This document shows positions 1 to 17,591 of a DNA stretch of 18,432 nucleotides, one piece after another. Each line of letters opens with the position of its first letter. Position 1 is the stretch's first letter. Both the position numbers and the translations under genes were made by a program. The DNA is from a virus, in the UHGV virus genome UHGV-1652841; one strand, written 5' to 3'. The notes beneath the pieces were generated by a model. It worked only from the letters and a program-made list of their open reading frames with translations, was not told the DNA's origin and did not search any database.

Positions 1-1
1 G

Positions 2-728: not shown

Positions 729-1337
729 CTACGCCTCCGGCAGTTCAGGCCAGATGACATCCGGCGCGGTGCTGGTATCTGTTGCCGTCACCGCGTCAAT
801 GTAATCCAGCGCAGCGTTAAGTCGGGCGGTTTCTGCCTGCGTCAGATTCCGTCCGGCCCGTAATTTCAGCTGAATCAGACTAATGGAAGCCATTGCTGCA
901 TCAATCAGTGACTGGCGCTTTACTTCTGCCGCGTCTAGTGCGGCACTATGCTGTGCATCGGCATCCGTCACCCATTTTTGGCCATCCCATTTGTCGTATG
1001 GCGTATCAGGTGCTTTGGTGGTGGTTCCTTCCGGGTATTCTCCCAACTGTGAAACTGCCACAGGTTCTCCAGTTTCCGTGCTGTAAACGGTTTCGCCGCG
1101 ATGGTCTGCAACATATTCCCAACCGGTCAAATCAGCCGTCCGGCAAACAGCAAAGCCGTCCTTTTTGCTGATTGGCGCATCCACGCACGAATTGCCTGGA
1201 ACACCAACGCCAACGGGAAGATATTCAACAGATAAACCGATATATTCACGCGTCACGCCATCGTAATTATAAACAGTGATAACCCCAGATTCCGTGGCGA
1301 ACCCGTTTTCATCCAGGTTGATTTCTTTTGTGGTCAT
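729..1337 (-). CDS. Tail fibre assembly protein (Tfa chaperone)
   Basis: 202 aa; position directly downstream of the fibre gene; C-terminus ...DVIWPELPEA typical of Tfa proteins; start ATG overlaps the fibre stop. Confidence 0.8.
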   Translation of the reverse strand: MTTKEINLDENGFATESGVITVYNYDGVTREYIGLSVEYLPVGVGVPGNSCVDAPISKKDGFAVCRTADLTGWEYVADHRGETVYSTETGEPVAVSQLGEYPEGTTTKAPDTPYDKWDGQKWVTDADAQHSAALDAAEVKRQSLIDAAMASISLIQLKLRAGRNLTQAETARLNAALDYIDAVTATDTSTAPDVIWPELPEA

Positions 1338-2203: not shown

Positions 2204-2883
2204 TAGAGTATTGTCCCCCATGCTCCAACATCGAACCCGCCGATGTATTCGTTATCCATATCAAACCCAAAGAATTTAGAGCCTTCTGACGGTGTTTCTA
2301 CCGAAGGCGTTTCAACATCACCGGCCCATACGCCAGCTGATTTAACGGTGAGATAGCCCTGTTTGATAGCGGCGATCAGTTCGAGAGACACATCAGAAAT
2401 ATCAGTTTCAGGGAAAACCCAGACCGAAATCGTCATGTCCTGGTTGTCGACGATCTGCATCCTCAGGCCTGAGCCTGCGGTAGCAGCGTCAAGGATGGGA
2501 GGCAGAGAGTCGTTCCGACCGTCCCAGTTGTTGATAGCGATTTTCGCTTTCAGAATGATGCGGTACGTCTCATCGCTTAGCGTCGTATAGCCAGAATCAG
2601 GATCATATGGCCCTTGCCAGATGCCCTGGTCATACCCAAGCCCGTCAGTGTCCAAGCTGAAATAAACTCCGCTAATTGGCTGGCTGACTATGCGACTGCG
2701 TCCGATCCACAGACCGAGGATGTCGAGCTGTACACCGACAGCAGTATCGATATCGAAGGCTGTTATAAGCCCTGACATAGTGCTGGACACATCAATCAGC
2801 GGGCAGGTGCTCAGATCTATATGGTCAAAAAAGAGTGGCTTGGTAGCGTGGTAGTTAGTGATCAGTTCGGTGTATTTGCTCAT
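2203..2883 (-). CDS. Tail/baseplate protein, gpI-like (DUF2612-type), fibre attachment
   Basis: 226 aa; sits between the baseplate J-like gene and the fibre gene, as Mu gp48 / P2 gpI does; overlapping start/stop coupling with neighbours. Confidence 0.55.
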   Translation of the reverse strand: MSKYTELITNYHATKPLFFDHIDLSTCPLIDVSSTMSGLITAFDIDTAVGVQLDILGLWIGRSRIVSQPISGVYFSLDTDGLGYDQGIWQGPYDPDSGYTTLSDETYRIILKAKIAINNWDGRNDSLPPILDAATAGSGLRMQIVDNQDMTISVWVFPETDISDVSLELIAAIKQGYLTVKSAGVWAGDVETPSVETPSEGSKFFGFDMDNEYIGGFDVGAWGTIL

Positions 2884-4079
2884 GAGGTCACCGTGATACT
2901 GATATTCGCGGTGCTACAGGACGCTGAAGCATCATAGGCAATATCAATGTTTGATGCCGATACGCTGCCAGACGACTTACCGATCAGCAGGTCGGTAATA
3001 TCGTAATAGCGGGCATTCCCGCCGCTCACAACGCCGAGGTTTGCCGGGGAATAAATACGGCTCAGCAGAACGTCGTCGCCAATTGTTAGGCCATTTATAT
3101 AATCGGCAACAGCCTGTTTAATCTGCTCGCCGATTTGAGAGGTATAGCCGGTAAAAACTTTCAGGGTAATGGCTACGAAAATTGGCACATCGGTAGAGCG
3201 CGAAAAACTGATGACGTGAGGATTACCATAAGTATCCGGCACTGTGACAGAAGTTTTACCGTAAGTTGCGGTTCCCTGCCCTTTATTCCCCCTGATGGTC
3301 TGGGCTATCTCGGTAACATCCCCTCCATCGACGATGGCGGAAATAGAGTGTGGCGGCAGCCCGTTGCTGTCGGTTGCCCCAGTATCGTTCTTATATAGTT
3401 TGTGACGTGTCACGCCAGCAACATTAGCGATAGCACCGTCGACACCTTCAAACGGTGTGATCGATGGTAGCGCGACGCTTTGCCCCTGCCGAATGCGCAG
3501 CTCTGCGTCGGTTTCGGCTGGTGAACCGACAGTAGCCGCAACTGGATTGGTTACCGACACCCAACCTCGGGTCGGGGTGTTGATAGTGGTAATAGTCCCG
3601 GCCAGCGCCGCAACCGAACCGCTATTCGCACATGTGGCCGTCACCAGCACAGTACCATCAACGCCGATCGCTACACTTGCGGGAAAATTCCAGATAATGC
3701 CGTTTTTATCCCGTGCGGAGCCATTCGTGATAGTCGTGCCTGCCGTACCGGTTAACAGAAGGTCAGCAGTAGAGTTTGTCGCTACTTTTCGCGTGATCCC
3801 GTTAATTTTCACATTGCTGCTAAGCGCTGCGGCCTGCGCTGTCGTCGGTGAAAAAGAGTTGTAGATCCCGATAGCGGTGTTGTTAGCGTCATGCACGGCA
3901 AGAGCCACCAGCGCGACCATCTGCCCGTCTTTGCTGTCTGGTTCGAGGTAGGCATCACTACCGTAAATCTGCCTGAAATAGCTGGTCAGTGTATCTAGGA
4001 TTGTCTGGTAATCAGGCGCACTAATCCCCTGGGCGGTTACCGTTGCCGATAGCCCCAGCGTGTCGAGGTTCAAAGCCAT
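2880..4079 (-). CDS. Baseplate J-like protein (Mu gp47 / P2 gpJ family)
   Basis: 399 aa; order in the tail operon after the W-like gene; N-terminal region resembles baseplate J family; ATGA-type overlaps on both sides. Confidence 0.75.
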   Translation of the reverse strand: MALNLDTLGLSATVTAQGISAPDYQTILDTLTSYFRQIYGSDAYLEPDSKDGQMVALVALAVHDANNTAIGIYNSFSPTTAQAAALSSNVKINGITRKVATNSTADLLLTGTAGTTITNGSARDKNGIIWNFPASVAIGVDGTVLVTATCANSGSVAALAGTITTINTPTRGWVSVTNPVAATVGSPAETDAELRIRQGQSVALPSITPFEGVDGAIANVAGVTRHKLYKNDTGATDSNGLPPHSISAIVDGGDVTEIAQTIRGNKGQGTATYGKTSVTVPDTYGNPHVISFSRSTDVPIFVAITLKVFTGYTSQIGEQIKQAVADYINGLTIGDDVLLSRIYSPANLGVVSGGNARYYDITDLLIGKSSGSVSASNIDIAYDASASCSTANISITVTS

Positions 4080-4433
4080 TTATGCCTCGCTTGTTACAGT
4101 CGTCTGGCCGTAGATTGTGTCAATGGAGGAAGTGAAGGTGACGCGACGGCTGGTGCCGTCATAATTGGTATCGAAGGAAAGAATCGACAGAACGCCCGGT
4201 GTATCCTGTATGCGTTCGCGTATAGCCAGGATGTAGACATCTGATCGCTGCTTCCCAAGCACTGACTGAACATACGGCGTGCCTTCCGTCAGATCGAGAA
4301 ACCACTGACCGCGCCACAGCTCGAAACGGGTTTTTACGGCCTGGGCGACACATTCCGGACTGTCGATAAGGAAAGTATCGTCACCCTGGCCGAAAGTGTA
4401 ATCGCCTTCAGTATCTTCGCGACGGTATCGCAT
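4080..4433 (-). CDS. Baseplate wedge protein, gpW / Mu gp46-like
   Basis: 117 aa ORF between the spike and J genes; size and position match the W-like baseplate component. Confidence 0.55.
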   Translation of the reverse strand: MRYRREDTEGDYTFGQGDDTFLIDSPECVAQAVKTRFELWRGQWFLDLTEGTPYVQSVLGKQRSDVYILAIRERIQDTPGVLSILSFDTNYDGTSRRVTFTSSIDTIYGQTTVTSEA

Positions 4434-5173
4434 TATTGCGGCCCTCCGGTAGTTCCCCCGCCAGTCTGTACTCCGCCATGTTTATGCGTGGCGACACTGA
4501 TACCAGAAGCTGTTACGTCATTCGTTACCGTCACCGGCCCAAGCATCGTCGCAGTACCGCCGCTTTCGCCCATTCCCTGAGACAAGTTGCCATTAATCGT
4601 TACGTTGCCGTTCAGCGTGATAGTCGGGGATGTGATTGTCGTTCCACCTTCAGCCGTAGCTGTAAGCTGGCCCGGTGTTTTAATGGTGATGTTATGTCCT
4701 GCGGCGACTTCTACAAACGCCGCACCATCATCGGTTCGCAGCTGCGCGGCGCTGGTACTGATACCGCTGATTTTCCGTGCTTGCGACTGTGGGCCAACGA
4801 TGGCGAACGCATCAGATAAGTCATGCTGGCGCGGGTCGACGGTCTCCTGCACGCCGCCGCTCTGCCACCAGAAATCGATGCAACGGTCGGCAAAGAGCAG
4901 CAGGCACTCGTCGCCTTCTTTAACCGGAAAAGTCAGCGTACAACCGCCGCCACGCGGGAAGATAACCGGCACATCCACCAGCGGTTTTAATTCGGTGGAG
5001 CCATCGCCAACGATACCGCGAAGCGCTACCTCTACCGTGCAGGTAACAGTGTCAGGATCGAACGACTGAATGATGCCGGGCATCGCTACGCGCATCTGGG
5101 TAGACACCGAATCGGCAATGGCCTGCGCGGTCTGCTGCTCACCGCCGATCTGTGATTGAGTTGGAATTGGCAT
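4433..5173 (-). CDS. Baseplate spike / assembly protein V-like (Mu gp45 family)
   Basis: 246 aa; N-terminal region (GIIQSFDPDTVTCTVEVAL...) followed by a Gly/Thr-rich repetitive C-terminus (TITSPTITLNGNVTINGN...GGGTTGG) typical of gpV/gp5-like spikes; GGGGG Shine-Dalgarno-like stretch 5 nt upstream. Confidence 0.75.
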   Translation of the reverse strand: MPIPTQSQIGGEQQTAQAIADSVSTQMRVAMPGIIQSFDPDTVTCTVEVALRGIVGDGSTELKPLVDVPVIFPRGGGCTLTFPVKEGDECLLLFADRCIDFWWQSGGVQETVDPRQHDLSDAFAIVGPQSQARKISGISTSAAQLRTDDGAAFVEVAAGHNITIKTPGQLTATAEGGTTITSPTITLNGNVTINGNLSQGMGESGGTATMLGPVTVTNDVTASGISVATHKHGGVQTGGGTTGGPQ

Positions 5174-5181
5174 AAAACCCC

Positions 5182-5208
5182 CATAAAAAAACCAGCCGAA
5201 GCTGGTTT
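5182..5208 (-). terminator. Intrinsic terminator-like hairpin on the minus strand, immediately upstream of the spike gene start
   Basis: Perfect 8-bp stem AAACCAGC / GCTGGTTT with 4-nt loop, followed on the minus strand by TTTTTTTAT. Confidence 0.5.
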
Positions 5209-5395
5209 GGTATCAATTATCTCTTAGTAACTAAGCTACATCAGTGTGAAGTAAGGCTTTTCCGCTGCAATGGCACACATTCACAATGTGTATTAGGATA
5301 TGTTTGCAACAAGTAAGCATTGAAAATCAATTTCAGCCATGAAGCCGCCATAGAGTGGACCTGCACCATCGCATTATTGACTACAGGAGTAACAA

Positions 5396-5686
5396 ATGGG
5401 ATTTAGATTTCGTAAAAGAATCCGGATTGCGCCCGGACTCGCGATCAACATTAGTAAAAGCGGAGTAAGCACTTCAATTGGTGGTAAAGGTTCCACCATT
5501 AACATCGGGAAAAAAGGCGTAAAGATGACAAATGGCCTTCCCGGCACGGGGCTGTCGCATACCACTAACCTTTACTCTCCCGGGAAATCGACAGAAAAAA
5601 AACAACTTACTCATAAGCAAAAAATAATTAGAAACATCCTGTTCGTAATTATTGTGTTTATTATAATTAAAGCTCAATATTTTTGA
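5396..5686 (+). CDS. Small tail-anchored membrane protein with DUF4236-like N-terminus
   Basis: 96 aa; N-terminus MGFRFRKRIRIAPGLAINISKSGVSTSIGGKG...GLPGTGLS matches the DUF4236 pattern as I recall it; C-terminal hydrophobic segment ILFVIIVFIII; AGGAG 8 nt upstream of ATG; AT-rich gene on the opposite strand to the tail operon. Confidence 0.6.
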   Translation: MGFRFRKRIRIAPGLAINISKSGVSTSIGGKGSTINIGKKGVKMTNGLPGTGLSHTTNLYSPGKSTEKKQLTHKQKIIRNILFVIIVFIIIKAQYF

Positions 5687-5691
5687 CGCAT

Positions 5692-5722
5692 GCCCGCCTA
5701 TCTGGCGGGCTATTTTACTTTT
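5692..5722 (+). terminator. Intrinsic terminator downstream of the DUF4236 gene
   Basis: Stem GCCCGCC / GGCGGGC with 5-nt loop, followed by TATTTTACTTTT; lies between two convergent genes. Confidence 0.5.
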
Positions 5723-6600
5723 CGGCAGTCGTATGTTGCATACTGGCGCGGCGCGTCTATGCTGGCCTGCAACCACTGTGCGTTGAGAATAGCTTTTCCG
5801 TTGCGCTTGATGTACTCAAGCCCAACCCAGCGGCCGGGTTGATTAGTGGCAGCCATCCACTCCATCTTGATGTTATCCGGTTCCCCTTTGGTGCTACCAC
5901 CAGAGCCGATTGGGCTAATTTTTTGCGTCTCTGGTTTTGCGCCATTAATTCTGGCCCAACCATCAGCAGAAGACAGATCAATCGTATAAGGACCACAGAC
6001 TGTTTTGTAATTCACGCCAAGCTTTTCGTTACTGTGAACATTACTACTTTTCTCGTAATCAGCCTTGGCTACGTCGTTCATTTTTTGATAGATGGCAGGT
6101 TGCTTCAGCGATAACTCATTTAGCTGTTTTACAAAATTTTCTCGTGAAACCTCTGCAAGCCCCATGGGTTTTCTATCAATGATATAATCATCATAAATCT
6201 TTAATACAACAGCCGAAGAAGAAAGTTTCTTAGCTAAATCATTTACAAAATTGAGATAATTTAGCTGAGAATTATCTCTTACATCGATAGCCCTAACTCC
6301 ACCTGTGCCGTACTCATGATATGCAGCATAAAAAGCTGGTATATTCTCCGGCTTTTTATTGATTGCCTTAATCAACCCGTCAGGACCACAGATCTCGCCA
6401 CTCCAGTCAATTAGTGACTTCCCTTTAGATTTCCATGTCTGACAATCATCTGTCGATAAAATTACTATCGGCTGCCATCCTGGACGTCTTTTGTACTCAG
6501 CGTTCTGCGCGGAATTAAAGCCTGCACTCGCGCCCCCGGATAAGAGCAACCCGGAAAGAAAAAGTGCGCTATATCGAATTCCGTTCTTATTTGTACCCAC
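5710..6600 (-). CDS. Secreted/periplasmic protein of unknown function (moron cargo)
   Basis: 296 aa. GTG start immediately after the TAA stop of the hub gene, preceded by AGGAGGAAA. Predicted signal peptide (basic n-region, hydrophobic core YSALFLSGLLLSGG, ASA-GF cleavage-type site). Lys-rich and AT-rich relative to the flanking tail genes. Confidence 0.7.
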   Translation of the reverse strand: MGTNKNGIRYSALFLSGLLLSGGASAGFNSAQNAEYKRRPGWQPIVILSTDDCQTWKSKGKSLIDWSGEICGPDGLIKAINKKPENIPAFYAAYHEYGTGGVRAIDVRDNSQLNYLNFVNDLAKKLSSSAVVLKIYDDYIIDRKPMGLAEVSRENFVKQLNELSLKQPAIYQKMNDVAKADYEKSSNVHSNEKLGVNYKTVCGPYTIDLSSADGWARINGAKPETQKISPIGSGGSTKGEPDNIKMEWMAATNQPGRWVGLEYIKRNGKAILNAQWLQASIDAPRQYATYDCRKVK

Positions 6601-7668
6601 TTAATTTCCTCCTGAGCGAGCTATAGTCGACTGGCTAATCAGGTCACGAGCCCCACGCGCAAAACACATCAAATCCATGTACCACGCCTGACCTCTGGTG
6701 TCACCAGTATAATCGATAGCTTTGACGATATAAACGCCATCTGTCGCAATGCTGGCAGCCTGTGACGTTGTGCCGGTCAGTACGCGGTTGCCGTTCTCTT
6801 CTGTTTCGGTGATGCGACCGGGCGACTGTGCTATTTCGCTATTACCGAGCGCGGCGCGGTACACCGAAGCCTGATCGAGCTGGATAAGACCATTAATACG
6901 GATGTTTGGGTTTATCAGGCACCGCACGTTTACTCCGCCGCCCATCGTTTGTTGCGGCATACCGATCAGGCCAGTATCGGCATTCAACACAATGGCTTCG
7001 TGAATATATTTATCCTCCGGCACCATCTGGACCTGACCATCCACCAGCTGCCATGTCGCTTTGCACTGCGCAGCAATATTATCCATCACGTTACGGGTGG
7101 ATGAATAAATCGCACGGCCACGAGGAAACACGGTATCAGGAAAGTCACCGGTAATGCCCTGCGTCACGCCGAACGCGTTGAAATCCTGCATAGTCGCCCG
7201 GTGCAGGTCCGCAACGGTATAACCAGCGGCAAGCGTGGTGATGGTAGTCGCGTAGAGGAACGCTTCGTGGTTACTGATGGCCTGAATCAGCACCCAGGAA
7301 TCGGTGATGTTGTCCTTCCCGGTGACGGTGAAGCGAATATCACCGTCAAATATCAGGCCGTAGTTCTGACCGTTCACCTGCCCTACCTGGTCTGGTGAAA
7401 TCTCCCGGGCGACACCAACCTGGCTCGCATCAACATCCGGCGCAATACCGTCATACCCGGCAATGATGCGAATTTTTGCAAACTCCTGCCCCAGTATCTT
7501 GTTCGTGGTATCGGTCGAAAGGTTGTAAATTTTCACGTTCGCCACGCGTGGCCAGCGTGTGTCTGCCCACTCGATCTGGAACGTGACCTTAAAGTCAGAC
7601 AGGGAAACGCCCTGCCCGTTCTGGTCCAACAGTTGCAGCTCAAAATGGCGCATCCAGTTAAGAGACAT
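6601..7668 (-). CDS. Baseplate hub / tail protein (Mu gp44 / P2 gpD-like)
   Basis: 355 aa; size and position (after the tape measure and small tail genes, before the spike in the ancestral order) match the hub protein. Confidence 0.6.
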   Translation of the reverse strand: MSLNWMRHFELQLLDQNGQGVSLSDFKVTFQIEWADTRWPRVANVKIYNLSTDTTNKILGQEFAKIRIIAGYDGIAPDVDASQVGVAREISPDQVGQVNGQNYGLIFDGDIRFTVTGKDNITDSWVLIQAISNHEAFLYATTITTLAAGYTVADLHRATMQDFNAFGVTQGITGDFPDTVFPRGRAIYSSTRNVMDNIAAQCKATWQLVDGQVQMVPEDKYIHEAIVLNADTGLIGMPQQTMGGGVNVRCLINPNIRINGLIQLDQASVYRAALGNSEIAQSPGRITETEENGNRVLTGTTSQAASIATDGVYIVKAIDYTGDTRGQAWYMDLMCFARGARDLISQSTIARSGGN

Positions 7669-7670
7669 TT

Positions 7671-7976
7671 CTACTCCTGTACGAAAATGAGGTGGCTGTA
7701 TGTGCCGAGGTTGGTTTTGGTGGGCTCGTCTGGTGCGCCCTTATCGGTCGCCACCACCAGCGCGCCATCAATGCCAAGCTGTGGATATTGTCGTAAAAGG
7801 TTTACGCCGGTCAGTAGAGGTACGCCAGAGAGAAGCGCGGCACCGCCGCTATCCATCACGTCCATAATCCAGCCAGCCGCATCACGTCAGATGATCCTGA
7901 GTGTATACGTGGTATTGCCCAGCAAAACGCGGAACTGCTGATTGTCAGGAGAAAGCGGTATTTCGTTAAACTGCAT
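7671..7976 (-). pseudogene. Small tail gene with an in-frame TGA (codon 30 of 101); nonsense pseudogene or two mini-ORFs
   Basis: One continuous frame from ATG at 7976 (overlaps upstream stop as TGATATG) to the stop at 7671, just before the hub start, interrupted only by TGA at 7887-7889. Conceptual product MQFNEIPLSPDNQQFRVLLGNTTYTLRII*RDAAGWIMDVMDSGG... Confidence 0.4.
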
Positions 7977-7977
7977 A

Positions 7978-8580
7978 TCATCCCCCGAATGCTGATGTAA
8001 CGCTTCCGCCCAGCTGGCTCAGCAAGGATTCGTTTGGCGGTGTAGTGGATTTCATCCCGGAATTCTGCACCGCCGATGTGCTGACGCCATCCTGCATATC
8101 TGATTTATCTGCAACGCTAACGCTCTGCGTCTGCGACATGATCACTTCACGCAGGGTAAGCGTGCAGTTCAGCACGTTCTCGCTGGTTTTATCCGTTGTC
8201 ACCTCGATGGCTCGCACCAGCATATTGCTGTAAACCCGCTTTCCGGTCACTACATCGAACGGCACCCGAGAGGACTGGAGATCCAGTAGTTGCTGATAGG
8301 TCTCTTTCGGGCTAAGTCCGGCGCTGAGGCCGATTGACGATGTATCAATGAAGTCCAGCAACGAACCGCCACCTGCGAAGCCGCATTCCATCGTGACTTC
8401 GCTGGGGCGCTTATACGCATGATCGGCGATGAAACCCGACGCGCTATTCGTTGTTGGCTTCTCCACCGGGTGCTCAGTAATTTCGAGCGCATCAGAATGC
8501 TTTTCGGAAACGACCACGCTGGGGATCAGCAGGCCAATTCGCCGGGATTGCTGGCGAAAAATCGCTGATAAAATATCCAT
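7978..8580 (-). CDS. Tail protein occupying the position of the Mu gp43 (DNA circulation-type) gene
   Basis: 200 aa; start ATG overlaps the tape-measure stop (TAATG). Family assignment is uncertain; the call is mainly positional. Confidence 0.45.
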   Translation of the reverse strand: MDILSAIFRQQSRRIGLLIPSVVVSEKHSDALEITEHPVEKPTTNSASGFIADHAYKRPSEVTMECGFAGGGSLLDFIDTSSIGLSAGLSPKETYQQLLDLQSSRVPFDVVTGKRVYSNMLVRAIEVTTDKTSENVLNCTLTLREVIMSQTQSVSVADKSDMQDGVSTSAVQNSGMKSTTPPNESLLSQLGGSVTSAFGG

Positions 8581-10217
8581 TATCTCGGTCCTGCGGGGAG
8601 TTGCTGGGTTAACTGTGAATTCACGCCCTTTTGACGGTCAACAGTCAAACGGGCAGCCTCGCGCGGATCGGAAACGCCGTGGATGTTAATGTTCGTTTCC
8701 TGCTGAATCACCGGGGCGCTGGTGGGCATATTGCTCATCACTTTCGGAATGTAGTTGCGCGTTTCCTGCGGCATTAGCCCCATTCCATAACGCTTAACAT
8801 TCCCGATCCCCCAGTTATATGATGCCAGTGCTTTGCTAAGGTCTCCGCCGTTCTGCCGCAACAGCTGGCTGAGGTACTTAGCGGCTGCCTGAGCTGACTT
8901 TTCCGGGTCGAATACATCATTCCCACGCAGGCCCATGTCGCGCGCCGTGCCATCCATAAACTGAAACAGTCCTTTCGCGCCTGCGCCGGATATGGCGAAC
9001 TGGTTACCACCCGACTCGGTGATCGCCACGCTTTTCAACAGGCCAGCTGGCAGCTGATAAAGCGACTCCAGTTTATTGAACATTGGCCCCATCCAGTCGA
9101 GCAATACCTTGCCCTGGGCCGTCGCCTGAGGTCGCTTAACCGACTGCGCTCGCTGCTCCGGCTCCAGTCCCATCTCCTGAATTTTTCGCTGGATTTGCTC
9201 ATCAGTGAAAAAGTCTTTGCCGGGATTTTCCTTTCTCAGCGCCTCATATGCCTGCTGCCTTTCAGGTACGATATTGCTGCCTATACCGCCAATCGACGCC
9301 ATTTCTTCACTGGTGGTCGGCGTATTGTTGGCAGGAATGAACATAAGCAACCATGGATTCTTGATTGCCAGCTGTGCGATCCCCTGCGCCAGCTTACCCA
9401 GCCCACCAATAGAGCCGCCAATTGCCTTACCAAGCCCCATAAATCCGGCGACAAGTCGCCCGATGCCAGTGAGCATGGAGACCAGCTTCGCACCAGCCAG
9501 AAAGCCAAACAGGATGGTGAGCGTATTTTTCCAGCCGCCGAGGTTGTCCTTGAGCTCCAGAAACTTATCGCGCAGCCACTTGAACACCTTCTTTGCCTGC
9601 TCAATTTCTGGCTGCCATTTGGACCAGTCAATCAGGCTTTTACCGCCCTCTTTCCACGTCTGGTAATCGTCGTACAGCAATCCGATCGCCAGAATCAGTG
9701 TGGTGATAATTCCAATCGGGGATTTCAGGAACGCAGAATTAAGCAGACGCCATGCGACCAGTAGAGCACCGAATATTTTCAGCAGATTTTTACTGCCATC
9801 GTCAAGACGCTTCCACCAGTCGATGACAGAGCCAGCGCCCTGTATCAGCCGCCACGCCATTCTCGTGAATGCGTTCGCAAGCCAGATCACGCCTTTAATA
9901 ACTCTGGTCAGCGTCTCTTCAATCTTCGGGAAATTGTCGAGGATGCGCCGCCGCAGGCTGTCCAGCGAACCAGCCAGGCCACCAGCGAGGTTTGAGCCGA
10001 TCTTGTCCCGCATGATGCCGAACAGCGACGTAAGCCCGCGCATGGACGTCATGAATTTGTTGGACTGAACAGCCGCTTTATCAGCGTTGAACCCTGTCTT
10101 TTGCAGCATCGACTGGTAATCGGCGGTAAAGCCATTCATGCCGCGCCGCATCGCCATCAGCGTGTTTTCATCGATGCCAAGCATCTGCGCGTATTGTTTC
10201 GCGCGGTAATACGGCAT
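8580..10217 (-). CDS. Tail tape measure protein with C-terminal lytic transglycosylase (SLT) domain
   Basis: 545 aa; central hydrophobic segments; C-terminal SLT-like motif ...VAITESGGNQFAISGAGAKGLFQFMDGTARDMGL...YNWGIGNV; position upstream of baseplate genes. Upstream context is a deletion junction, so the N-terminus may not be native. Confidence 0.75.
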   Translation of the reverse strand: MPYYRAKQYAQMLGIDENTLMAMRRGMNGFTADYQSMLQKTGFNADKAAVQSNKFMTSMRGLTSLFGIMRDKIGSNLAGGLAGSLDSLRRRILDNFPKIEETLTRVIKGVIWLANAFTRMAWRLIQGAGSVIDWWKRLDDGSKNLLKIFGALLVAWRLLNSAFLKSPIGIITTLILAIGLLYDDYQTWKEGGKSLIDWSKWQPEIEQAKKVFKWLRDKFLELKDNLGGWKNTLTILFGFLAGAKLVSMLTGIGRLVAGFMGLGKAIGGSIGGLGKLAQGIAQLAIKNPWLLMFIPANNTPTTSEEMASIGGIGSNIVPERQQAYEALRKENPGKDFFTDEQIQRKIQEMGLEPEQRAQSVKRPQATAQGKVLLDWMGPMFNKLESLYQLPAGLLKSVAITESGGNQFAISGAGAKGLFQFMDGTARDMGLRGNDVFDPEKSAQAAAKYLSQLLRQNGGDLSKALASYNWGIGNVKRYGMGLMPQETRNYIPKVMSNMPTSAPVIQQETNINIHGVSDPREAARLTVDRQKGVNSQLTQQLPAGPR

Positions 10218-10323
10218 GTTGTTGAGCTTTTGCCCAACCCGCCCTGATAGCTGCCTGTGTGGCGTTTAAATCTTTCAGGTACTCACGGGCAAACAGCTCT
10301 TGTTTGTCGGTGAGCTTTGCCAT
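10174..10323 (-). pseudogene. Terminase small subunit, N-terminal stub (about 28 native residues, then out-of-context sequence)
   Basis: MAKLTDKQELFAREYLKDLNATQAAIRAG matches the conserved N-terminus of P27-type terminase small subunits; after AAIRAG the frame reads WAKAQQHAVLPRETIRADAWHR-stop. No terminase large subunit, portal or capsid genes follow. Confidence 0.6.
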
Positions 10324-10675
10324 TGTTGGCTCCGTTTATCCGTTAAAAGGGATATCAGTTAAGTTATCCCGTGCAGGGTATAAGCCATTGTCGAGACCAC
10401 TCATTGAATGGCCTCTGCAATAACCGATGTCTTTCCATCAGCCCGCCACCACAAAGAATCTTTTTTGCCATAAGGCTGGAGGTTCATCTTTCAGTGGCTG
10501 CCAGTGTTATTTCCCCACTTACTGGCTTGGGTTGCTTCGTGGTACTGCCGTAACTGGTGGTGCACAGATTTAGTTAAATCTGTTCTCGCCTGAACTATCT
10601 TTTACATACCCGGATTGTGGGGATGTAAATCACGGTTTCATTATCAAGCCCACCCGTAGATGGGCTTTGTAATGG

Positions 10676-10933
10676 CTACTTCGCTTTTGCTTCCGCTCGC
10701 TTACGCCGGCGCTCTTCTTTCCTCTCGGCTTTTGCCATGTCCATGAATGCCTGCATGATCGAGTTCCGCATCATGTAGCTAACAAAGTGATGATTGACAC
10801 AGCCGTTGAGGCGCAGCTGCTCGCCAAACTCATCCACCGAGGCCAATGCTTCCCTCATGCCCTTCTCGCCTTTCATGAACTCTGAGAAGTCGCGCCCCGC
10901 TCTGGAGGCGCATTCAATGACACGATCACTCAT
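10676..10933 (-). CDS. Hypothetical small phage protein
   Basis: 85 aa ORF with basic C-terminal tail; start overlaps the stop of the upstream KilA-N gene; followed by a 7-bp-stem hairpin (AAGCCCA / TGGGCTT). Confidence 0.45.
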   Translation of the reverse strand: MSDRVIECASRAGRDFSEFMKGEKGMREALASVDEFGEQLRLNGCVNHHFVSYMMRNSIMQAFMDMAKAERKEERRRKRAEAKAK

Positions 10934-11427
10934 CCCGGAAGCCCGGGGATCGTAATCTGCAGCTGGTTAGCCAGGGAGTTAATCTCAGCGACCAACACTG
11001 GCTTCGTATAGCGCCATGCTGCCAGCCCTTGTCCGCAGAAGCTCGCCATGTCTTTCTTCTGGTCAAACTCATGACATTTCATGTTGAGCTGCGCACTTAA
11101 GCTGTTGCGATGCTGAAGTTCTCCGGTGAAGTAGTCATCGAGGACTTTATAGGCCGCGTACTTGAACCCGGGGTTTAACCAAGCCGCATAATCGTAAGCA
11201 ACAAACTTCCCGCCATATGTTCCACCGTGTACACCGCGCTCAGTAAAAACCACAGATTCGTGGTTTTTCTCCAGCTCGGCTAAGAACTCTTTGGTCTGCT
11301 TGTTTCGCAGGTAGTGGTAAGGCGATTCAGATTCACTTTTACCACTAGCTTTCCACATATCAGTGAGGCAGATCATGCCATCTTCACCGATACGAATTGG
11401 TTGATTGAAGAGGGTTAATGATTTCAT
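10930..11427 (-). CDS. KilA-N domain protein
   Basis: 165 aa; N-terminal ...QPIRIGEDGMICLTDMWKASGK...GGTYGGKFVAYDYAAWLNPGFKYAAYKVL fits the KilA-N pattern. Confidence 0.7.
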   Translation of the reverse strand: MKSLTLFNQPIRIGEDGMICLTDMWKASGKSESESPYHYLRNKQTKEFLAELEKNHESVVFTERGVHGGTYGGKFVAYDYAAWLNPGFKYAAYKVLDDYFTGELQHRNSLSAQLNMKCHEFDQKKDMASFCGQGLAAWRYTKPVLVAEINSLANQLQITIPGLPG

Positions 11428-11541
11428 AGCGTGTACCTACTCTTTGAAATGAACCTTTGCCGCACAGGAAACCAGCCCACCGAGGCTCGCCAGCACTAAC
11501 TGGTATCCTCAAAGGCCCATTCCAAAGGGGCAGGTTCGGTG

Positions 11542-11597
11542 TAAAAAACATGCGTTGCGGTACGCATTTATTGCAAAAAGCCCCGCATCGCGAGGCT
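11542..11597 (-). terminator. Two tandem intrinsic terminators downstream of the lysis cassette
   Basis: Minus-strand hairpin GCCTCGC-GAT-GCGGGGC followed by TTTTTG, then hairpin ATGCGT-ACCGCA-ACGCAT followed by GTTTTTTAC. Confidence 0.5.
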
Positions 11598-11628
11598 CAT
11601 TAAATGGACTTTGTGATTTGCAAAAAAA

Positions 11629-12096
11629 TTATTTCAGGCATTGCGTCCTGATGTATTCCTGCAGGTAGTTAACCTGCGCGGTTATCTTGTCGATTCCACT
11701 TCGTAGACGGTAATAATTGAGTTCAGCATCTGCTGTAAGTCTTGGGCTTTCTCCATCGCCCATGCTGCTGGCTCCGGTCGTTGACTTTGCACAGGTGGCG
11801 GCGACTTGCAGGCGCTTACGGCCAGCAATGACATCGCTATGCAGACGCTCAATGGTTTCTTTCGCATCAGCCAGTTCTCCGGTGTATTTGGCATCCAGTG
11901 CAGCGACATCACGCTGGCGGGTCTGCATGTCTTTAATGGTGGCGGTCGCCAGGAGGAGTTTCTCAGTGGCCTTATCGCGCTGGTCTCTGTAAGTGATGGC
12001 GTTGTCGCGGTAGTGGTTCACGAAGAAAGCCAGTGCGCCGATTAACGCCAGCACCAGCAACTGCAGCCAGTAACGCTTAACCAGTGCGCTAATCAT
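11629..12096 (-). CDS. Rz-like i-spanin
   Basis: 155 aa; N-terminal TM segment then ...[14 protein letters not shown]...[22 protein letters not shown], very close to lambda Rz; ends ...YIRTQCLK; ATGA overlap with endolysin. Confidence 0.85.
11682..11867 (-). CDS. Rz1-like o-spanin lipoprotein, embedded in the +1 frame of Rz
   Basis: Embedded ORF; probable start [20 protein letters not shown] (lipobox VSAC) followed by a proline-rich segment [12 protein letters not shown], as in Rz1. Confidence 0.7.
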
Positions 12097-12542
12097 GACA
12101 GGAACAGAGCTCGCTCTGCCTTGCGGCGATTCGTGAGCCCCGGCATCACCTTTCCGCCTGATTTATTCCAGCGCAGAAATTCATCTGCCGCGCCTTTTAT
12201 ATCGCCAGCATTCAGCTTTTTCAGCAGTGTAGATGTGGAAAGAGCACGCGACCCAACGTTGTAAGCGAACGACACCAGTGCGTCGAACTGGCCTTGTGTC
12301 AGCTTCACCCTGACAACTTTCAGCACGTCATTCTCATAACCAACAAGCCCTGTTTTCAGAAGCCTGTCAGCGGTTTGCTGGTCGATAGTCATACCGCGCT
12401 TTACTGGCTTTCCGTCAACCGGATGGGTCCAGCCATAGCCGATGGTCCACGGCGCATCTCCCGTTCCGGGGTCGGGGTAAGCAGTCAGCCGACAACCTTC
12501 AAATTTTTTTATCAGAGCAATTCCGTCAGGACTGGTTTGCAT
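12093..12542 (-). CDS. Endolysin, T4-lysozyme-like (GH24) family
   Basis: Resembles P22 gp19-type lysozyme (…[18 protein letters not shown]...GYG...[11 protein letters not shown]). Likely start is MQTSPDG (12542), overlapping the holin end; the listed ORF extends to 12614. Confidence 0.85.
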
Positions 12543-12858
12543 CGTCAACTCCCGCCTTTTTTGCTGCAAGTTTTTTAATAAGATTGCCGATCGAATCGGT
12601 GCCGATGTATCCAATAAAGACGCTGGCTATGTAGGCGAGGTTGCTGCTCAGGCCGATAAAGTCCAGAAGGTCACGAACGAACCAGGCAATCATCGCGCAC
12701 ATCAGCGCATCAATTAGCGTTTTTGTTACCGCGCCGCCGTTATAGCGACCACGCAGATACGCCATGATAAAAGCCAGCATTGCACCAATACCCTGCTCCT
12801 TGGCGGCAAGTAGCGCAGCGATGAAATCTTGTTTGTATGGCATTTTCATAGGCCTCAC
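12526..12858 (-). CDS. Holin (lambdoid class, dual-start motif)
   Basis: 110 aa; ...[26 protein letters not shown]...[16 protein letters not shown]... closely resembles lambdoid-prophage holins; N-terminus MRPMKM offers alternative starts; GGAGGT SD upstream. Confidence 0.85.
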
Positions 12859-13057
12859 CTCCGATTTTCCGGATGGTGCTGTGTGTGTGTTTGAAAAGGG
12901 TCAGGCTTCACGGGCTGGATTTATCAACAAAGCACGTAGCGGATGATTCCCGTGAGCCTGAAATTGATGAATATGTCTGAAATAACTAGACCATTAGTAA
13001 AACAACTCGATAAATGTGGTTAAATGAGACTACGTTCTCACAACTTAATTAGTACCA

Positions 13058-13228
13058 ATGATTATCAAGCCCTGCCCCTACTGCGGAAAGTTAATTAACC
13101 CAGAATCACTTGTGTGTAGCCACTGCCGGATAGTGAATCCTTTTGTGAAGGCCAGCAGAAGAGAAAAAGCGAAGAATGTATTAGTAATCGCTCTCGTTGC
13201 TGCTTTTTTAATTTGGATGATTCTCTGA
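13058..13228 (+). CDS. Small zinc-ribbon, tail-anchored membrane protein (not in the supplied ORF list; under 60 aa)
   Basis: 56 codons: MIIKPCPYCGKLINPESLVCSHCRIVNPFVKASRREKAKNVLVIALVAAFLIWMIL; CPYC...CSHC zinc-ribbon spacing plus a C-terminal hydrophobic helix; AT-rich context; weak SD. Confidence 0.4.
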   Translation: MIIKPCPYCGKLINPESLVCSHCRIVNPFVKASRREKAKNVLVIALVAAFLIWMIL

Positions 13229-13259
13229 GTTGCCAGTTTTCAATGAAGATAATGCGGGC

Positions 13260-13286
13260 AAAAAAAGCCTGCTCGGACGAACAGGC
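13260..13286 (-). terminator. Intrinsic terminator (minus strand) in the Q-to-lysis intergenic zone
   Basis: Stem GCCTG / CAGGC with 10-nt loop, followed on the minus strand by TTTTTTT. Confidence 0.4.
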
Positions 13287-13665
13287 ATGAAAAATAACAA
13301 TACCGTCAAGGAGGTGGCGCCGGGTGCCTCCCGGTGGAACAGCCCCAGCCGACTAGTTCCGCGCAAACAAACCTGGACAAAAAAGTTTGACTGGACGCCC
13401 CGCCGCATAGGGGGATTCACCACGAACCAAAAGATAAAATCATCCGGTGACCGGGGCAATATCTAACCGGAACTTTTCAGAATCACTTATTGTTTCCTGG
13501 AGAGTACATGAGCGTTGGTGAATTCACGTGATGCTTTTGGATGAGCGCTGAACCCAAAGGTCAGTATTTTCACACAGCAATTTTGCAAAAAGCAGCGCCC
13601 ATTCAAAACCAGGTCGCTTTCCAGTCACTCCGGGGAACCCATCATCGCAGACTGGAAAGCTTTTA

Positions 13666-13694
13666 CTGGAGCGGGCAAAGGAATCGAACCTCTG
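13666..13694 (-). other. tRNA 3'-end-like fragment (T-arm, acceptor 3' strand, CCA); possible att-core or tRNA remnant
   Basis: Minus strand reads AGAGGTTCGATTCCTTTGCCCGCTCCA: canonical GGTTCGATTCC T-loop and a ...CCCGCTCCA 3' end resembling a Gly-tRNA terminus. No complementary 5' acceptor strand within about 80 nt upstream. Confidence 0.3.
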
Positions 13695-13703
13695 ACGCGC
13701 AGC

Positions 13704-13958
13704 TTATTTCCAGCTTTCGCCATTTAAGGCTGAAAGCACTGTTTGATGTGTTACACCAAACATTCTCCCTAGCCCTCTGGCTCCATAAACCTTATGTCGT
13801 GGAATGTAGTTTTCTCTGATGAACTGGACGCTGTCCATTGTTAGCTTGCTCATACCATTCAGCTCACCAGCTACTAAGTAGCTAAGGTCAAATTTGGTTT
13901 TCTGAATGTGGCATGCAGAACATAGTAGTTGGCACTTTTCAACCTCAGCATAAAACAC
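13704..13958 (-). CDS. HNH endonuclease-like remnant with C-terminal HTH-like region
   Basis: 84 aa, GTG start right after an in-frame TAG; begins inside an HNH-type zinc motif (…LLCSACHIQKT…) without the upstream HNH residues; C-terminus ...FIRENYIPRHKVYGARGLGRMFGVTHQTVLSALNGESWK resembles HTH tails of phage HNH proteins. Confidence 0.35.
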   Translation of the reverse strand: MFYAEVEKCQLLCSACHIQKTKFDLSYLVAGELNGMSKLTMDSVQFIRENYIPRHKVYGARGLGRMFGVTHQTVLSALNGESWK

Positions 13959-14165
13959 CTAATCTGAGTGATAGTGCATCTCGCTTACATTTGCTGATTT
14001 GGTGGAAGGGTCTATGTGGTCAAACTGAAGCGAATATTCGGATCCGCAACTCGCGCAACGACCACCCAACTTTTCCACGGTCTTAGCAAGCCTAGCCCTT
14101 CGATTAAGATAGTAATCTTTGCTCGGCATTTACCACCTCTACCATTGGAGCTAAACCAGCATGTT

Positions 14166-14240
14166 TGGCGGGATAGCGTGGACTCGAACCACGATAAGAA
14201 GGTTAACAGCCTTCCGTAATGACCTTTATACGACTGACCC
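14166..14240 (-). tRNA. tRNA-like element, anticodon GTT (Asn-type), imperfect acceptor and D stems; possibly degenerate
   Basis: Minus strand: GGGTCAG-T-CGTA-TAAAGGTCAT-TACG-GAAGG-CTGTTAA-CCTTC-TTAT-CGTGG-TTCGAGT-CCACG-CTATCCC-G-CCA. Perfect anticodon and T arms and encoded CCA, but two adjacent mismatches in the acceptor stem and no nucleotide 26. Lies 60-90 nt downstream of the Q gene. Confidence 0.35.
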
Positions 14241-14330
14241 AAATAAAAAAGCCACCGTTGCAACTTAAGAGTCACTAACGGCAGCTTATGCGAATAGTGT
14301 TGCTCATTTGCTCAATGATGTCAACACGTT

Positions 14331-14819
14331 CTATGCTACATGTTTAATTTTCTCTACACGTTTCCGGTTTTTAAACGCACTATCCAGAACCGGGTAAATC
14401 ATAAACAACGAGGCATTGAGGATTTCGTCAACTTCCCGACGACAGGTTGCGAGCGATGGTTTTTGAATGCGCCCTCCGCCCCGGCATAACATCTTGCGAG
14501 GTCTTGCGACGCGATGATAGTAAGATGCAATGGCGTGCTTGGAAGATCCATGGGCGTAGTAGCTGAGGAGGATGCCAAAGGCTTTCTTGTCAATGTACAT
14601 GACGGAATCGACGACCTGAGAAATCAACATTCCATCATCATCATTGCACATTGGCCTTGTCATAACTCTTCCCGGCTCTACGCTCTCCATGAACTTCGCT
14701 ATTACGCTGCTCATGCGCTTTTCAAGACGACCTGAATAAACCCATGCCCCCCACAGTTCAAGCCAGCCATTCAGCCACTCGTGCTGCTCTTTGGTGAGGT
14801 TTAGTTCTCTTATGCCCAT
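14331..14819 (-). CDS. Late-gene antiterminator Q (QuuD-like family)
   Basis: 162 aa; LELWGAWVYSG...RPMCNDDDGMLISQVVD...ILLSYYAHG matches the pattern of lambdoid-prophage Q proteins (…RWGAWAA…RPQCCDDDAMII…DYYV…); position after ninH/rusA and before the lysis genes. Confidence 0.7.
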   Translation of the reverse strand: MGIRELNLTKEQHEWLNGWLELWGAWVYSGRLEKRMSSVIAKFMESVEPGRVMTRPMCNDDDGMLISQVVDSVMYIDKKAFGILLSYYAHGSSKHAIASYYHRVARPRKMLCRGGGRIQKPSLATCRREVDEILNASLFMIYPVLDSAFKNRKRVEKIKHVA

Positions 14820-15004
14820 CGTCTTCCCCTCTTGCCCTGTTTGACCATCAGGACGCCGTTAACTATTACGTGACGCTCGCCTTTGCTGTCTCGGTTGTAC
14901 TTAAGCACTGTTCCTCTTGCGCAGGAAAGCATCCTTGCCACTTCGGTCTGATTGCCTCGTGTCTGGATAAGAAGCTCTGGTATCGTTTGAATTGTGGCGT
15001 TCAT
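14810..15004 (-). CDS. ninH: NinH-like protein
   Basis: 64 aa; …TIPELLIQTRGNQTEVARMLSCARGTVLKYNRD…HVIVNGVLMV… closely parallels lambda NinH. Confidence 0.7.
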   Translation of the reverse strand: MNATIQTIPELLIQTRGNQTEVARMLSCARGTVLKYNRDSKGERHVIVNGVLMVKQGKRGRRWA

Positions 15005-15363
15005 ACGTTCTCCAGTTCGGTGATTTTTATTCCAAGCCGTCCGCCTGGTACTTTCACGCCACGAATTACGCGAATGTCATCGAATTGCTCGTCGTCTTCC
15101 GCAAATCCGGCGTGGATAAGGGAGTCGAGTAAACCTTTCAGGATGTTGTCGAGGTCGCGGCGGCGGGAGTCTGGAACGTCTGCGATGACTTTGATGCGGA
15201 GTCGTGATTTGGTGAAAATGTCTAACTTAAGTTGGCGGATGATTTGCTGAACGTCTTTTCGGTATTTCTGGCCTTTATCGCTGATGTAGTATTGGCTTCC
15301 CCGTCTTCGCCAGTAGGTATTCACCGACGGCGGGTATGGAAGCACAAACTGATATTCGTTCAT
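15001..15363 (-). CDS. rusA: Holliday junction resolvase RusA
   Basis: 120 aa; …LPYPPSVNTYWRRRG…DVPDSRRRDLDNILKGLLDSLIHAGF..DD.QF.DIRVI…GGRL.I.ITE… is the RusA family signature with catalytic Asp residues. Confidence 0.9.
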   Translation of the reverse strand: MNEYQFVLPYPPSVNTYWRRRGSQYYISDKGQKYRKDVQQIIRQLKLDIFTKSRLRIKVIADVPDSRRRDLDNILKGLLDSLIHAGFAEDDEQFDDIRVIRGVKVPGGRLGIKITELENV

Positions 15364-15650
15364 GACTTAATCTTCCCCTCCTTCAGCAGTATCGCCTGCG
15401 TCCTGATCACGCCTTCGAGGTGGTAAAGCCTGGCGTCTTTGTTGTCGAGATTATGGGTGCGTCGGTCGATTTCATCGTGACACGCGCTACAAGCCCATGC
15501 GCCGATCAGGTCGTCAGGCTTCATTCCCGTTCCGCAAATTCCAGCCATCCGGTAATGTGCCAGAACTGTAGTTTCAGGGTTGCCATTGCATACGCCGTAA
15601 ATACGTACCTGGCATTCTCTGCCGCGCGCTTCTTTGCGTAGGTTAGCCAT
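15360..15650 (-). CDS. DUF1364-family protein (YbcO-like, putative metal-dependent nuclease)
   Basis: 96 aa; MANLRKEARGRECQVRIYGVCNGNPETTVLAHYR…CSACHDEID… matches YbcO-type nin-region proteins. Confidence 0.8.
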   Translation of the reverse strand: MANLRKEARGRECQVRIYGVCNGNPETTVLAHYRMAGICGTGMKPDDLIGAWACSACHDEIDRRTHNLDNKDARLYHLEGVIRTQAILLKEGKIKS

Positions 15651-16372
15651 TAAGCAGCCTCTCCTGTTACTTTCAGCATTCCGTTATCGAGCAACTTTCT
15701 GGTCAGCCACTGTTGACCGCGCCCGGTGATTTTTGTGGTGAACGATATCTGTATTCCGTGATTTGTATTGACCGCTGTTTCTTTCACTGTGAAATAGCCG
15801 CGATCCATATATTCCTGCATTGGCACATTGCGCCGGGAACCTGAAGCAATAAGGATTTTGTGATCGCGCATCCACGCAAACAGTTTGTTTGGACCAATAC
15901 CGACAACCTTTGCAAAGTTTCCAATCAAAATTCCGCTGGCCTCGCCAACGCGATCGGCAAACTCAACTTTAGGTGCGGCAATTGCGAGCTGGTTTTCCAG
16001 TTGCATTTTCTGCTCAGCAAGATCAGCAGCAAGGCGCAACGCTTCTGGTAGCGTTTTGGGGATATTAACCGCAGCTTCTTCAAGCTCTCGCCAGCGGTCA
16101 ACAAGGCGAGCGGTGAATTCCGGCGACAACTGGGCAACAACGACAATACTGTCTCGCTTACCTTGTTCGCCTTCGAAGACGTAATGCTCGTACTGAACAT
16201 TGAACCCTAAGTTATTGATTCTTTCGGAAACCTCAATTTGAGGAAGCCGGATAACACCATTTTTAGCCAGCGTTTCGATGGTACGTTTCACATTGTCATG
16301 ACGCTTACCAACCAACTCAGCGATTTCAATGCTTGTCATTTTGATGGCATTGCCATTTATTAACTCATTCAT
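15650..16372 (-). CDS. Phage antirepressor (Rha-type N-terminal domain plus KilAC/Ant C-terminal domain)
   Basis: 240 aa; N-terminal …MTSIEIAELVGKRHDNVKRTIETL… (Rha-like) and C-terminal antirepressor-like domain. Confidence 0.75.
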   Translation of the reverse strand: MNELINGNAIKMTSIEIAELVGKRHDNVKRTIETLAKNGVIRLPQIEVSERINNLGFNVQYEHYVFEGEQGKRDSIVVVAQLSPEFTARLVDRWRELEEAAVNIPKTLPEALRLAADLAEQKMQLENQLAIAAPKVEFADRVGEASGILIGNFAKVVGIGPNKLFAWMRDHKILIASGSRRNVPMQEYMDRGYFTVKETAVNTNHGIQISFTTKITGRGQQWLTRKLLDNGMLKVTGEAA

Positions 16373-16535
16373 CGTCTTCTTCCTCGTGCATCGAGCTATT
16401 CGGATCGCTCATCAGTTCTGCGCAGCAGTGCTCACACACGTGAACTTCCAGCACATGCAGCTTCTGACCGTAGTTAGCGCACGTTAAAGCTCGCTCGACA
16501 CTTCCTTGTTCGTAACTTCGATTTTGGTCAATCAC
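16365..16535 (-). CDS. Small Cys-rich ORF (possible zinc-binding protein); not in supplied list
   Basis: 56 codons from GTG with GAGGAAAA SD: VIDQNRSYEQGSVERALTCANYGQKLHVLEVHVCEHCCAELMSDPNSSMHEEEDDE; stop overlaps the antirepressor start. In frame with the truncated helicase after its TAG but unlike a DnaB C-terminus. Confidence 0.3.
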   Translation of the reverse strand: MIDQNRSYEQGSVERALTCANYGQKLHVLEVHVCEHCCAELMSDPNSSMHEEEDDE

Positions 16536-16556
16536 CTTGTTTTCCTCGCACGTTCT

Positions 16557-17591
16557 CTAATCGACCAGAATCATGCCAACACATCCTTTTTCTCGCTTGA
16601 TTCGACGACTTTCGCTGACGATTTGAGCCAGAGATAATCCCGGCGTGTCGTCGATGTAAAGCAGGTCGATTTCACTCAAGCGATTGGCTGTTTCGATCGC
16701 CCTGTTGAAGTCACCATCGTAATCACCCTGATAGCCGTCATCAGCGTCATTTGTCGCCGGAATGTAAAAAATATTCGGGTTAACACCTGACTTCTGTCCT
16801 ACCAGCTTTTCCAGTATCTGGTCGCCTGGCATTTCAAGACTGAACATCAGAGCGGGCTTTTTCTCATGCACTGCGCAGTTGATTGCCATCTGGCTGTATA
16901 GCGTCGTTTTCCCCATCTTAGGGCGAGCGCCAATGACGAACAGAGAGCCTTTCACCAGACCTTTCGGTGACAGCATCCTGTCCAGAGATGGGATCCCTGT
17001 GCTCATTCCTCGTTGTTCGCCTGACGGGTCAAATCGCTTCTCAAGGTCGCTAACCCAGTCTTCCATGACCTCACCAAATGAGCGAAGGCCGCGACGCGAT
17101 CCGGTTTTTGCATGGTCTGTCAGTTGCGTGAAAATCGCCTGAATAGCTTCGTACTTCTGCGTTGCAGTCATTCCGTTGCGGGAATAGAGCAATTCCGTCG
17201 CTTCAGTCATGCGGTTGATGGCGTAGCGTTCCATTGCGGTTTCACGAACCTGCATTGCATAGGCAACGATGTTTGCTGCGCTTGGCGTGTTCTTTGCGAT
17301 CTCAGCGATATAAGCAAAACCGCCAACAGACGCCGTTAACGATTTACGCTCCAGTTCATCGAAAAGCGTCAGGCCATCTACTGGCTTTTGCTCCCGGTGC
17401 ATTCTGGTTATTTCTTCGAAAAGGATTTTGTGTGGTCGGCTGTAAAATGAATCAGGCTTCAGCATCGCCAGAACTTTCTGGACGCGCTCACTGCTGTCAT
17501 CATCCAGAAGCAATCCACCAATCACCGCCTGCTCTGCCTCGATGCTATGGGGCGGCGCATAAAAATTATCGGTCATCGTGTTCACCCTCAC
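16557..17591 (-). CDS. DnaB-like replicative helicase, C-terminally truncated
   Basis: 344 aa with DnaB N-terminal domain and Walker A (GARPKMGKTT); ends ...GCVGMILVD-TAG where intact DnaB-family proteins continue (…IDYLQLM… and about 130 more residues). Confidence 0.8.
   Translation of the reverse strand: MRVNTMTDNFYAPPHSIEAEQAVIGGLLLDDDSSERVQKVLAMLKPDSFYSRPHKILFEEITRMHREQKPVDGLTLFDELERKSLTASVGGFAYIAEIAKNTPSAANIVAYAMQVRETAMERYAINRMTEATELLYSRNGMTATQKYEAIQAIFTQLTDHAKTGSRRGLRSFGEVMEDWVSDLEKRFDPSGEQRGMSTGIPSLDRMLSPKGLVKGSLFVIGARPKMGKTTLYSQMAINCAVHEKKPALMFSLEMPGDQILEKLVGQKSGVNPNIFYIPATNDADDGYQGDYDGDFNRAIETANRLSEIDLLYIDDTPGLSLAQIVSESRRIKREKGCVGMILVD

Follow-up and report, generated by a model that had tools for sequence, protein, structure and literature searches.

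The DNA analyzed here, referred to as the window, is the 18,432-nucleotide viral contig UHGV-1652841. A scar within it is best explained, with a probability of roughly 93%, as the product of one illegitimate deletion across an AAC microhomology, which would have removed approximately 11.6–12.4 kb from the late operon of an E. coli lambdoid myovirus prophage in the course of ordinary prophage decay. The deletion would have fused codon 29/30 of the small terminase gene (terS) to codon 141/142 of the tape-measure protein (TMP) gene, out of frame. A single, RecA-independent deletion within one prophage appears to be the simplest account of this arrangement.

The deletion junction and the lost interval

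The first-pass annotation had proposed that positions 10174–10323 hold a deletion junction at which a terS stub abuts the tape-measure gene. This was confirmed by alignment to intact relatives, which places the breakpoints at base level at 10236–10238 (Table 1). When window 9600–10900 (1301 nt) was compared by megablast with 5,426 complete E. coli genomes, the query split at its positions 637–639, equivalent to window 10236–10238. The left part (query 1–639) matches tail genes annotated as “transglycosylase SLT domain-containing protein” at 93–98% identity, and the right part (query 637–1301) has a 97% match to “hypothetical protein/terminase small subunit”. No more than 51% of the query is covered in one place in any of these 5,426 genomes, from which the junction is absent. 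Base-level alignment showed that TMP identity ends at 10238 and that terS identity begins at 10236. The former limit is exact in five relatives (PEC422, ET650, Citrobacter phage Omnitron, CUPF09 and a metagenome contig), and the latter is found in ET650 and CUPF09.

Table 1. Features of the window around the deletion junction
Feature	Position	Strand	Remarks
Fibre assembly protein, 202 aa	729–1337	-	Full length relative to relatives
Collar-domain fibre	1337–2221	-	Full length relative to relatives
Wedge1/DUF2612	2203–2883	-	Full length relative to relatives
Baseplate_J	2880–4079	-	Full length relative to relatives
Sheath initiator	4080–4433	-	Full length relative to relatives
Spike gpV	4433–5173	-	Full length relative to relatives
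DUF4236 gene	Between ORF296 and the gpV-type spike	Opposite strand	
ORF296, 296-aa secreted/lipoprotein-like protein	5710–6600	-	Long form of phrog_3443; inside the tail module
Motif shared by ORF296 and TMP	6400–6438 (ORF296); 9621–9659 (TMP)	-	
Baseplate hub, 355 aa	6601–7668	-	Full length; phrog_196
Baseplate plug gene (Pam3_gp18 type), pseudogene	7671–7976	-	TGA at 7887–7889 replaces Trp30 (TGG to TGA)
Dit-like baseplate protein, 200 aa	7978–8580	-	Full length
Tape-measure remnant	8580–10238	-	DNA from codon 142 of the intact gene onward; C-terminal SLT lytic-transglycosylase domain
terS stub ORF, 51 aa	10168–10323	-	Codons 1–29 genuine small terminase; codons 30–51 out-of-frame tape-measure DNA to a chance stop
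Deletion junction	10236–10238	none	3-bp microhomology AAC (+ strand), the only bases common to the terS and TMP parents
Native spacer, 352 nt	Starts at 10324, upstream of the scar	-	Collinear with intact relatives
orf85 (85 aa)	10676–10933	-	Collinear with intact relatives
KilA-N protein	10930–11427	-	Collinear with intact relatives
Rz/Rz1	11629–12096	-	Collinear with intact relatives
Endolysin	12093–12542	-	Collinear with intact relatives
Holin	12526–12858	-	Collinear with intact relatives
tRNA-Asn	14166–14240	-	

The stub matches the Pfam Terminase_2 profile (PF03592) at positions 1–31 of 141 (E=3.8e-11) and so holds a fragment of the domain as opposed to its full length. Its residues 1–29 are identical (29/29) to those of the 184-aa TerS of strain ET650, and the two proteins diverge thereafter. 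The description of a conserved terminase N-terminus followed by unrelated sequence thus stands, with the conserved part being 29 residues long as opposed to the approximately 28 claimed. The same alignment to the 184-aa TerS rules out the 51-aa ORF as a regulatory ORF. The product is a nonsense peptide, which would not be expected to function in assembly.

On the other side of the junction, the longest ORF of the TMP remnant runs from 8580 to 10217 on the minus strand (545 aa), with its ATG at 10215–10217. Met1 of this ORF is the internal Met149 of the 755-aa PEC422 protein, and residues 1–148 are missing. It otherwise corresponds to residues 149–755 of that protein, with a shorter variable middle. 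The ORF is assigned to phrog_2276, tail length tape measure, over profile positions 195–658 of 673; positions 1–194 are absent, and the PhageMin_Tail-like region (residues 37–158 of the intact protein) is nearly all lost. The C-terminal domain is present, with SLT being the sole Pfam domain of the ORF (PF01464, residues 379–479, E=2e-25). The middle of the gene (window 9149–9547, minus strand) contains repeats and is variable in length, also from one intact phage to another: CUPF09 has an additional 219-nt tandem copy there, and intact TMPs span 667–857 aa. Alignment to these 667–857-aa homologs rules out the alternative that the 545-aa protein is a full-length native gene that lies beside a short regulatory ORF, and identifies it as an N-terminally truncated TMP.

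The two ORFs overlap by 50 nt, 1 nt out of frame. The stub and TMP frames are separated by stops, and thus no fusion protein is formed. It had been stated that the TMP ORF begins in another frame about 100 nt upstream of the stop of the stub. The difference in frame holds, but the distance is shorter, as the ATG precedes the end of the stop codon by 50 nt and the TMP-derived DNA itself begins 70 nt upstream of it. No Shine–Dalgarno-like sequence can be read in the 20 nt (GGGCAAAAGCTCAACAAC) before the internal ATG. The TMP remnant could be made only from this internal methionine without a ribosome-binding site, and would not be expected to function in assembly.

The organization of the locus before the deletion can be seen in intact lambdoid myovirus prophages of E. 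coli (CUPF09, ET650, PEC422 and metagenome contig ERZ1304794 NODE_160) and in Citrobacter phage Omnitron (CP115737), which have the same late-operon order as the element. This begins with holin, endolysin, Rz, (KilA-N, orf85) and terS; following the head and tail genes it resumes with the SLT tape measure, Dit-like protein, plug and hub, and ends with a small secreted protein, spike, sheath initiator, Baseplate_J, wedge1, fibre and assembly protein. The nucleotide identity of these relatives to the retained genes is 90–98%. In contrast to the element, they keep the 11.6–12.4 kb that separate terS codon 30 from TMP codon 141, a TMP of 667–857 aa, a TerS of 184 aa and an intact plug. In ET650, 11,643 nt separate the breakpoints (15680 and 27323 of the locus), and in CUPF09 12,448 nt (16639 and 29087 of the locus), with both flanks in matching order and orientation in each; the difference between the two intervals is mostly one extra HNH gene in CUPF09. 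The deletion size is an estimate because no relative matches both flanks at high identity and the exact parent has not been seen. In ET650, the flank identity is 96.7% on the terS side and 64.6% on the TMP side; in CUPF09, it is 98% on the TMP side and 80% over the first 81 nt of terS.

In both ET650 and CUPF09, the breakpoints enclose contiguous essential genes. According to the annotation of these two prophages, the interval includes TerS residues 30–184 and TerL, followed by a DUF1073 portal and the genes of the head (head morphogenesis, DUF2213, scaffold, cement and the DUF2184 major capsid protein). Four genes for head completion and the neck come next, together with a sheath of the DUF3383 type and a tube of the DUF3277 type. 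The interval ends with two chaperone genes (one for tail assembly, the other for a small DUF6889 protein) and the first 141 TMP codons. No terL, portal, capsid, sheath or tube gene was found in the whole element from attL to attR, and between these two sites neither a DUF3383/E217_gp31 sheath gene nor a DUF3277/PhiTE tube gene is present. The earlier observation that the large terminase subunit, portal, capsid, sheath, tube and chaperones are missing is therefore borne out, as the intact relatives hold them in this very interval.

The junction could also have arisen by illegitimate recombination between two prophages, or between a resident remnant and an infecting phage, as opposed to a deletion in one. 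This would account for the best matches of the two flanks residing in different genomes, and for the mosaic nature of the element, which has lambda int and att sequences and an IntS-type int remnant beside the fibre genes. In addition, the block formed by the fibre C-terminus, the assembly protein and attR recurs in an otherwise very dissimilar element at this site. Such mosaicism is, however, the norm among lambdoid phages. The terS type and the tail module co-occur in both ET650 and CUPF09, in an order and orientation that fit a simple deletion. A two-parent origin needs an extra assumption to reach an identical end product, and it is considered very improbable next to deletion within a single prophage.

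Carriers, integration site and the remainder of the element

The exact 545-aa protein is present on eight contigs of public assemblies. An identical junction was found in ENA ERZ28810828 (a 50-kb contig with 44x coverage), ENA ERZ773108, IMG/VR UViG 3300030379_000026 and Logan SRR31716339. All sightings of the junction are in metagenome or read-set assemblies, with no isolate genome among them. Exact-pattern scans with a 65-mer and a 28-mer (the latter being GAGCTTTTGCCCAACCCGCCCTGATAGC) did not find the junction in the representative genomes of 185,579 species, so that the source lineage cannot be among the GTDB representatives. The carriers are 100% identical to each other over up to 18 kb, and the 50-kb contig of ERZ28810828 is 100% identical to window 321–18432. 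This contig has the order ybhC, attL (BOP' with a lambda int fragment), the element, attR (P arm and core GCTTTTTTATACTAA), ybhB and bioA. The element is thus an integrated prophage at lambda attB (ybhC/ybhB-bioA), with a host flank 99.9% identical to E. coli.

Window 1–320 reads into an IntS-type integrase (ORF 23–406, plus strand), while every other carrier (four other assemblies) runs on from 320/321 as the P arm of lambda attP and attR. The left end of the window is probably a misjoin at the contig end through the 86-nt int 3' remnant; the alternative is a structural variant. The resemblance of these first 320 nt to a contig-end misjoin, in a window that appears to be a metagenome-derived viral contig, could suggest that the junction itself is an artefact of assembly on a chimeric contig. 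This has a negligible probability, and is ruled out by the recurrence of the junction in independent assemblies: the junction and its flanks are base-identical in four further assemblies from different pipelines, including a 50-kb contig that has host genes on both sides.

The genes of the central window are all on the minus strand. The late-operon region upstream of the scar extends over 10324–12858, with Q beyond the holin gene. At attL, a 67-aa lambda int fragment is followed directly by replication genes, and no xis, recombination genes, immunity region or repressor were found in the element from attL to attR. The gene for a DnaB-type helicase (window 16557–17591, minus strand) breaks off at profile position 312 of 421 and abuts ninF. 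A second deletion scar is located at this DnaB/ninF boundary, at approximately 16557–16569. An HNH-endonuclease-like gene between Q/tRNA-Asn and the holin gene (13704–14129, minus strand) is split by a single in-frame stop, and an 86-nt remnant of an IntS-type int resides beside the fibre genes. The scar is one of several inactivating events, and the element would represent one stage of progressive prophage decay.

A strong terminator-like hairpin at 13267–13286 (minus strand), between Q and the holin gene, is probably tR'. No sigma-70-like promoter was found on the gene strand near the scar. Together with the hairpin, this suggests that the remaining tail genes depend on the Q-mediated late transcript. 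Such transcription would have lost its upstream activating circuit, and the remaining late genes are presumably silent. Judged from its gene content, the element appears to be a non-functional, much-decayed prophage remnant. It is predicted to yield no particles on induction, as it has no head, sheath or tube genes, a truncated int, and neither xis nor a repressor.

The retained tail module: selection or leftover

The first-pass annotation had described a complete baseplate-to-fibre set downstream of the junction. This does not hold, as the plug gene carries a nonsense codon at 7887–7889 (minus strand). PEC422, ET650 and an intact relative with 98% identity all have Trp at codon 30 of the plug, and the stop is common to every carrier that covers the site (L004, L007 and L008). 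The module thus falls short of the simple myovirus baseplate of the Pam3/E217 type, with seven of its eight genes being full length and the plug having TGA at codon 30. The accompanying statement that the element can form neither virions nor a tailocin is upheld at the level of gene content: with every head, sheath and tube gene absent, it should be able to make neither.

Within the module, ORF296 belongs to a small family of secreted or lipoprotein-like proteins of approximately 284–299 aa. Its relatives have an L-S-G-C lipobox, whereas the copy in the window has Gly23. Searches of Pfam, NCBIfam and PDB sequences returned nothing for ORF296. In PHROGs, it matches phrog_3443 by its C-terminal domain only, with nothing for the N-terminal domain, and intact relatives often have a short form of 111–123 aa (phrog_3443) in its place. 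The GC content of the N-terminal domain is 41%, against 51–54%. An invariant Cys-flanked loop of the family, DDCxTWKxxGKSLIDWSGExC, matches the conserved TMP motif DDYQTWKEGGKSLIDWSKW at the peptide level. No DNA repeat between ORF296 and the TMP gene that would explain this shared motif was found, and the codons differ. ORF296 is likely a moron (“cargo”) gene; it may, speculatively, encode a tape-measure mimic for superinfection exclusion.

A sibling defective prophage is found at the same lambda attB in the E. coli assemblies GCA_003686925.1 (positions 855–6609 of the locus), GCA_018318005.1 and GCA_020417755.1. It shares with the element the last 146 fibre residues and the 202-aa assembly protein, both identical, and the same end formed by the IntS remnant, P arm and attR. 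It is also without capsid, sheath, tube and TMP genes. In contrast to the element, it keeps a lambda-type terL, gpW and portal and a Mu-like baseplate (gp45–gp48). Its scar is a 295-aa in-frame fusion of the N-terminus of lambda gpC (approximately 75 aa) to the Mu gp44/GPD hub (from profile position 115). As this gpC–Mu gp44 scar lies elsewhere, the head-to-tail genes were lost independently of the deletion in the window. Megablast against the phage collection gave no match for the sibling element.

It had been suggested that the baseplate, fibre and cargo genes are retained under selection. The analysis does not support this suggestion, in light of the plug stop, the truncated TMP, the identical carriers and counts of codon changes that are not distinctive. 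Lineage-specific nonsynonymous:synonymous changes over seven retained genes number 12:42 in the window, 23:50 in PEC422 and 54:150 in Omnitron, counts in which most changes pre-date the deletion and for which the Omnitron plug coordinates are probably out of register. As a check for purifying selection, the 12:42 of the window is not different from the ratios of the intact relatives PEC422 and Omnitron. The intactness of the genes is likewise uninformative on selection, because the carriers are identical over up to 18 kb and there has been no time for decay.

Two related proposals give the remaining genes a function. The first is a domesticated element, in which the baseplate/fibre block or its morons are kept for the benefit of the host, e.g., as a reservoir of fibre genes or for superinfection exclusion. 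Apart from the plug, the distal genes are all full length, and ORF296 is a conserved secreted protein with a tape-measure-like motif. Additionally, the sibling element independently lost its head, sheath and tube genes while keeping baseplate, fibre and the identical assembly protein. In published surveys of incomplete prophages, losses fall preferentially on terminase, portal and capsid genes, and tail-fibre genes show a statistical enrichment (PMC7744054); the enrichment would suit domestication, and the deletion pattern in the window fits these surveys. However, no contractile device is possible without sheath and tube, and the plug nonsense codon occurs in all carriers covering the site, alongside the truncated TMP. 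The junction is also absent from the 5,426 complete E. coli genomes and from the representatives of 185,579 species, and neither the intactness of genes in identical carriers nor the codon counts speak for domestication, which is consequently regarded as highly doubtful.

The other is that the distal tail block has been kept and not left over, and that it could serve the host by excluding superinfecting phages through a tape-measure decoy and/or by storing fibre genes with which incoming phages can recombine. Its basis is that baseplate, fibre and an identical assembly protein survived each of two unrelated head-to-tail deletions at lambda attB. The block further includes ORF296, the conserved secreted protein in which a disulfide loop copies the conserved TMP motif. 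This is at best a slim possibility. Under the preferred reading of ordinary decay, the distal baseplate and fibre genes would remain since the deletion missed them and, presumably, little time has passed.

Known systems and meaning of the scar

The cryptic lambdoid prophages of E. coli K-12 (DLP12, Rac, Qin and e14) are chromosomally locked, with internal deletions and a truncated int, and retain lysis and/or tail-fibre genes. In comparison, the element resides at lambda attB and has a myovirus-type tail module; it is rare (0 of 5,426 complete genomes) and not lineage-fixed. A likeness to R-type tailocins (pyocin R2 type) can be seen in the presence of tail genes without head genes beside a lysis cassette. 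Unlike these, the element lacks sheath, tube and chaperones, its TMP is truncated and its plug is a pseudogene.

The scar provides a clean, base-resolved example of how a prophage is disabled, here by loss of its packaging, head and sheath block at a microhomology. Both ORFs, of 51 and 545 aa, should be annotated as fragments of pseudogenes. IMG/VR lists the contig among its viral genomes, yet on its sequence it would be a non-viable prophage remnant and not a phage. Its importance extends little beyond this correct annotation, as the scar is a further example of a well-known kind. The sole thread of wider potential is the secreted protein that copies a tape-measure motif.
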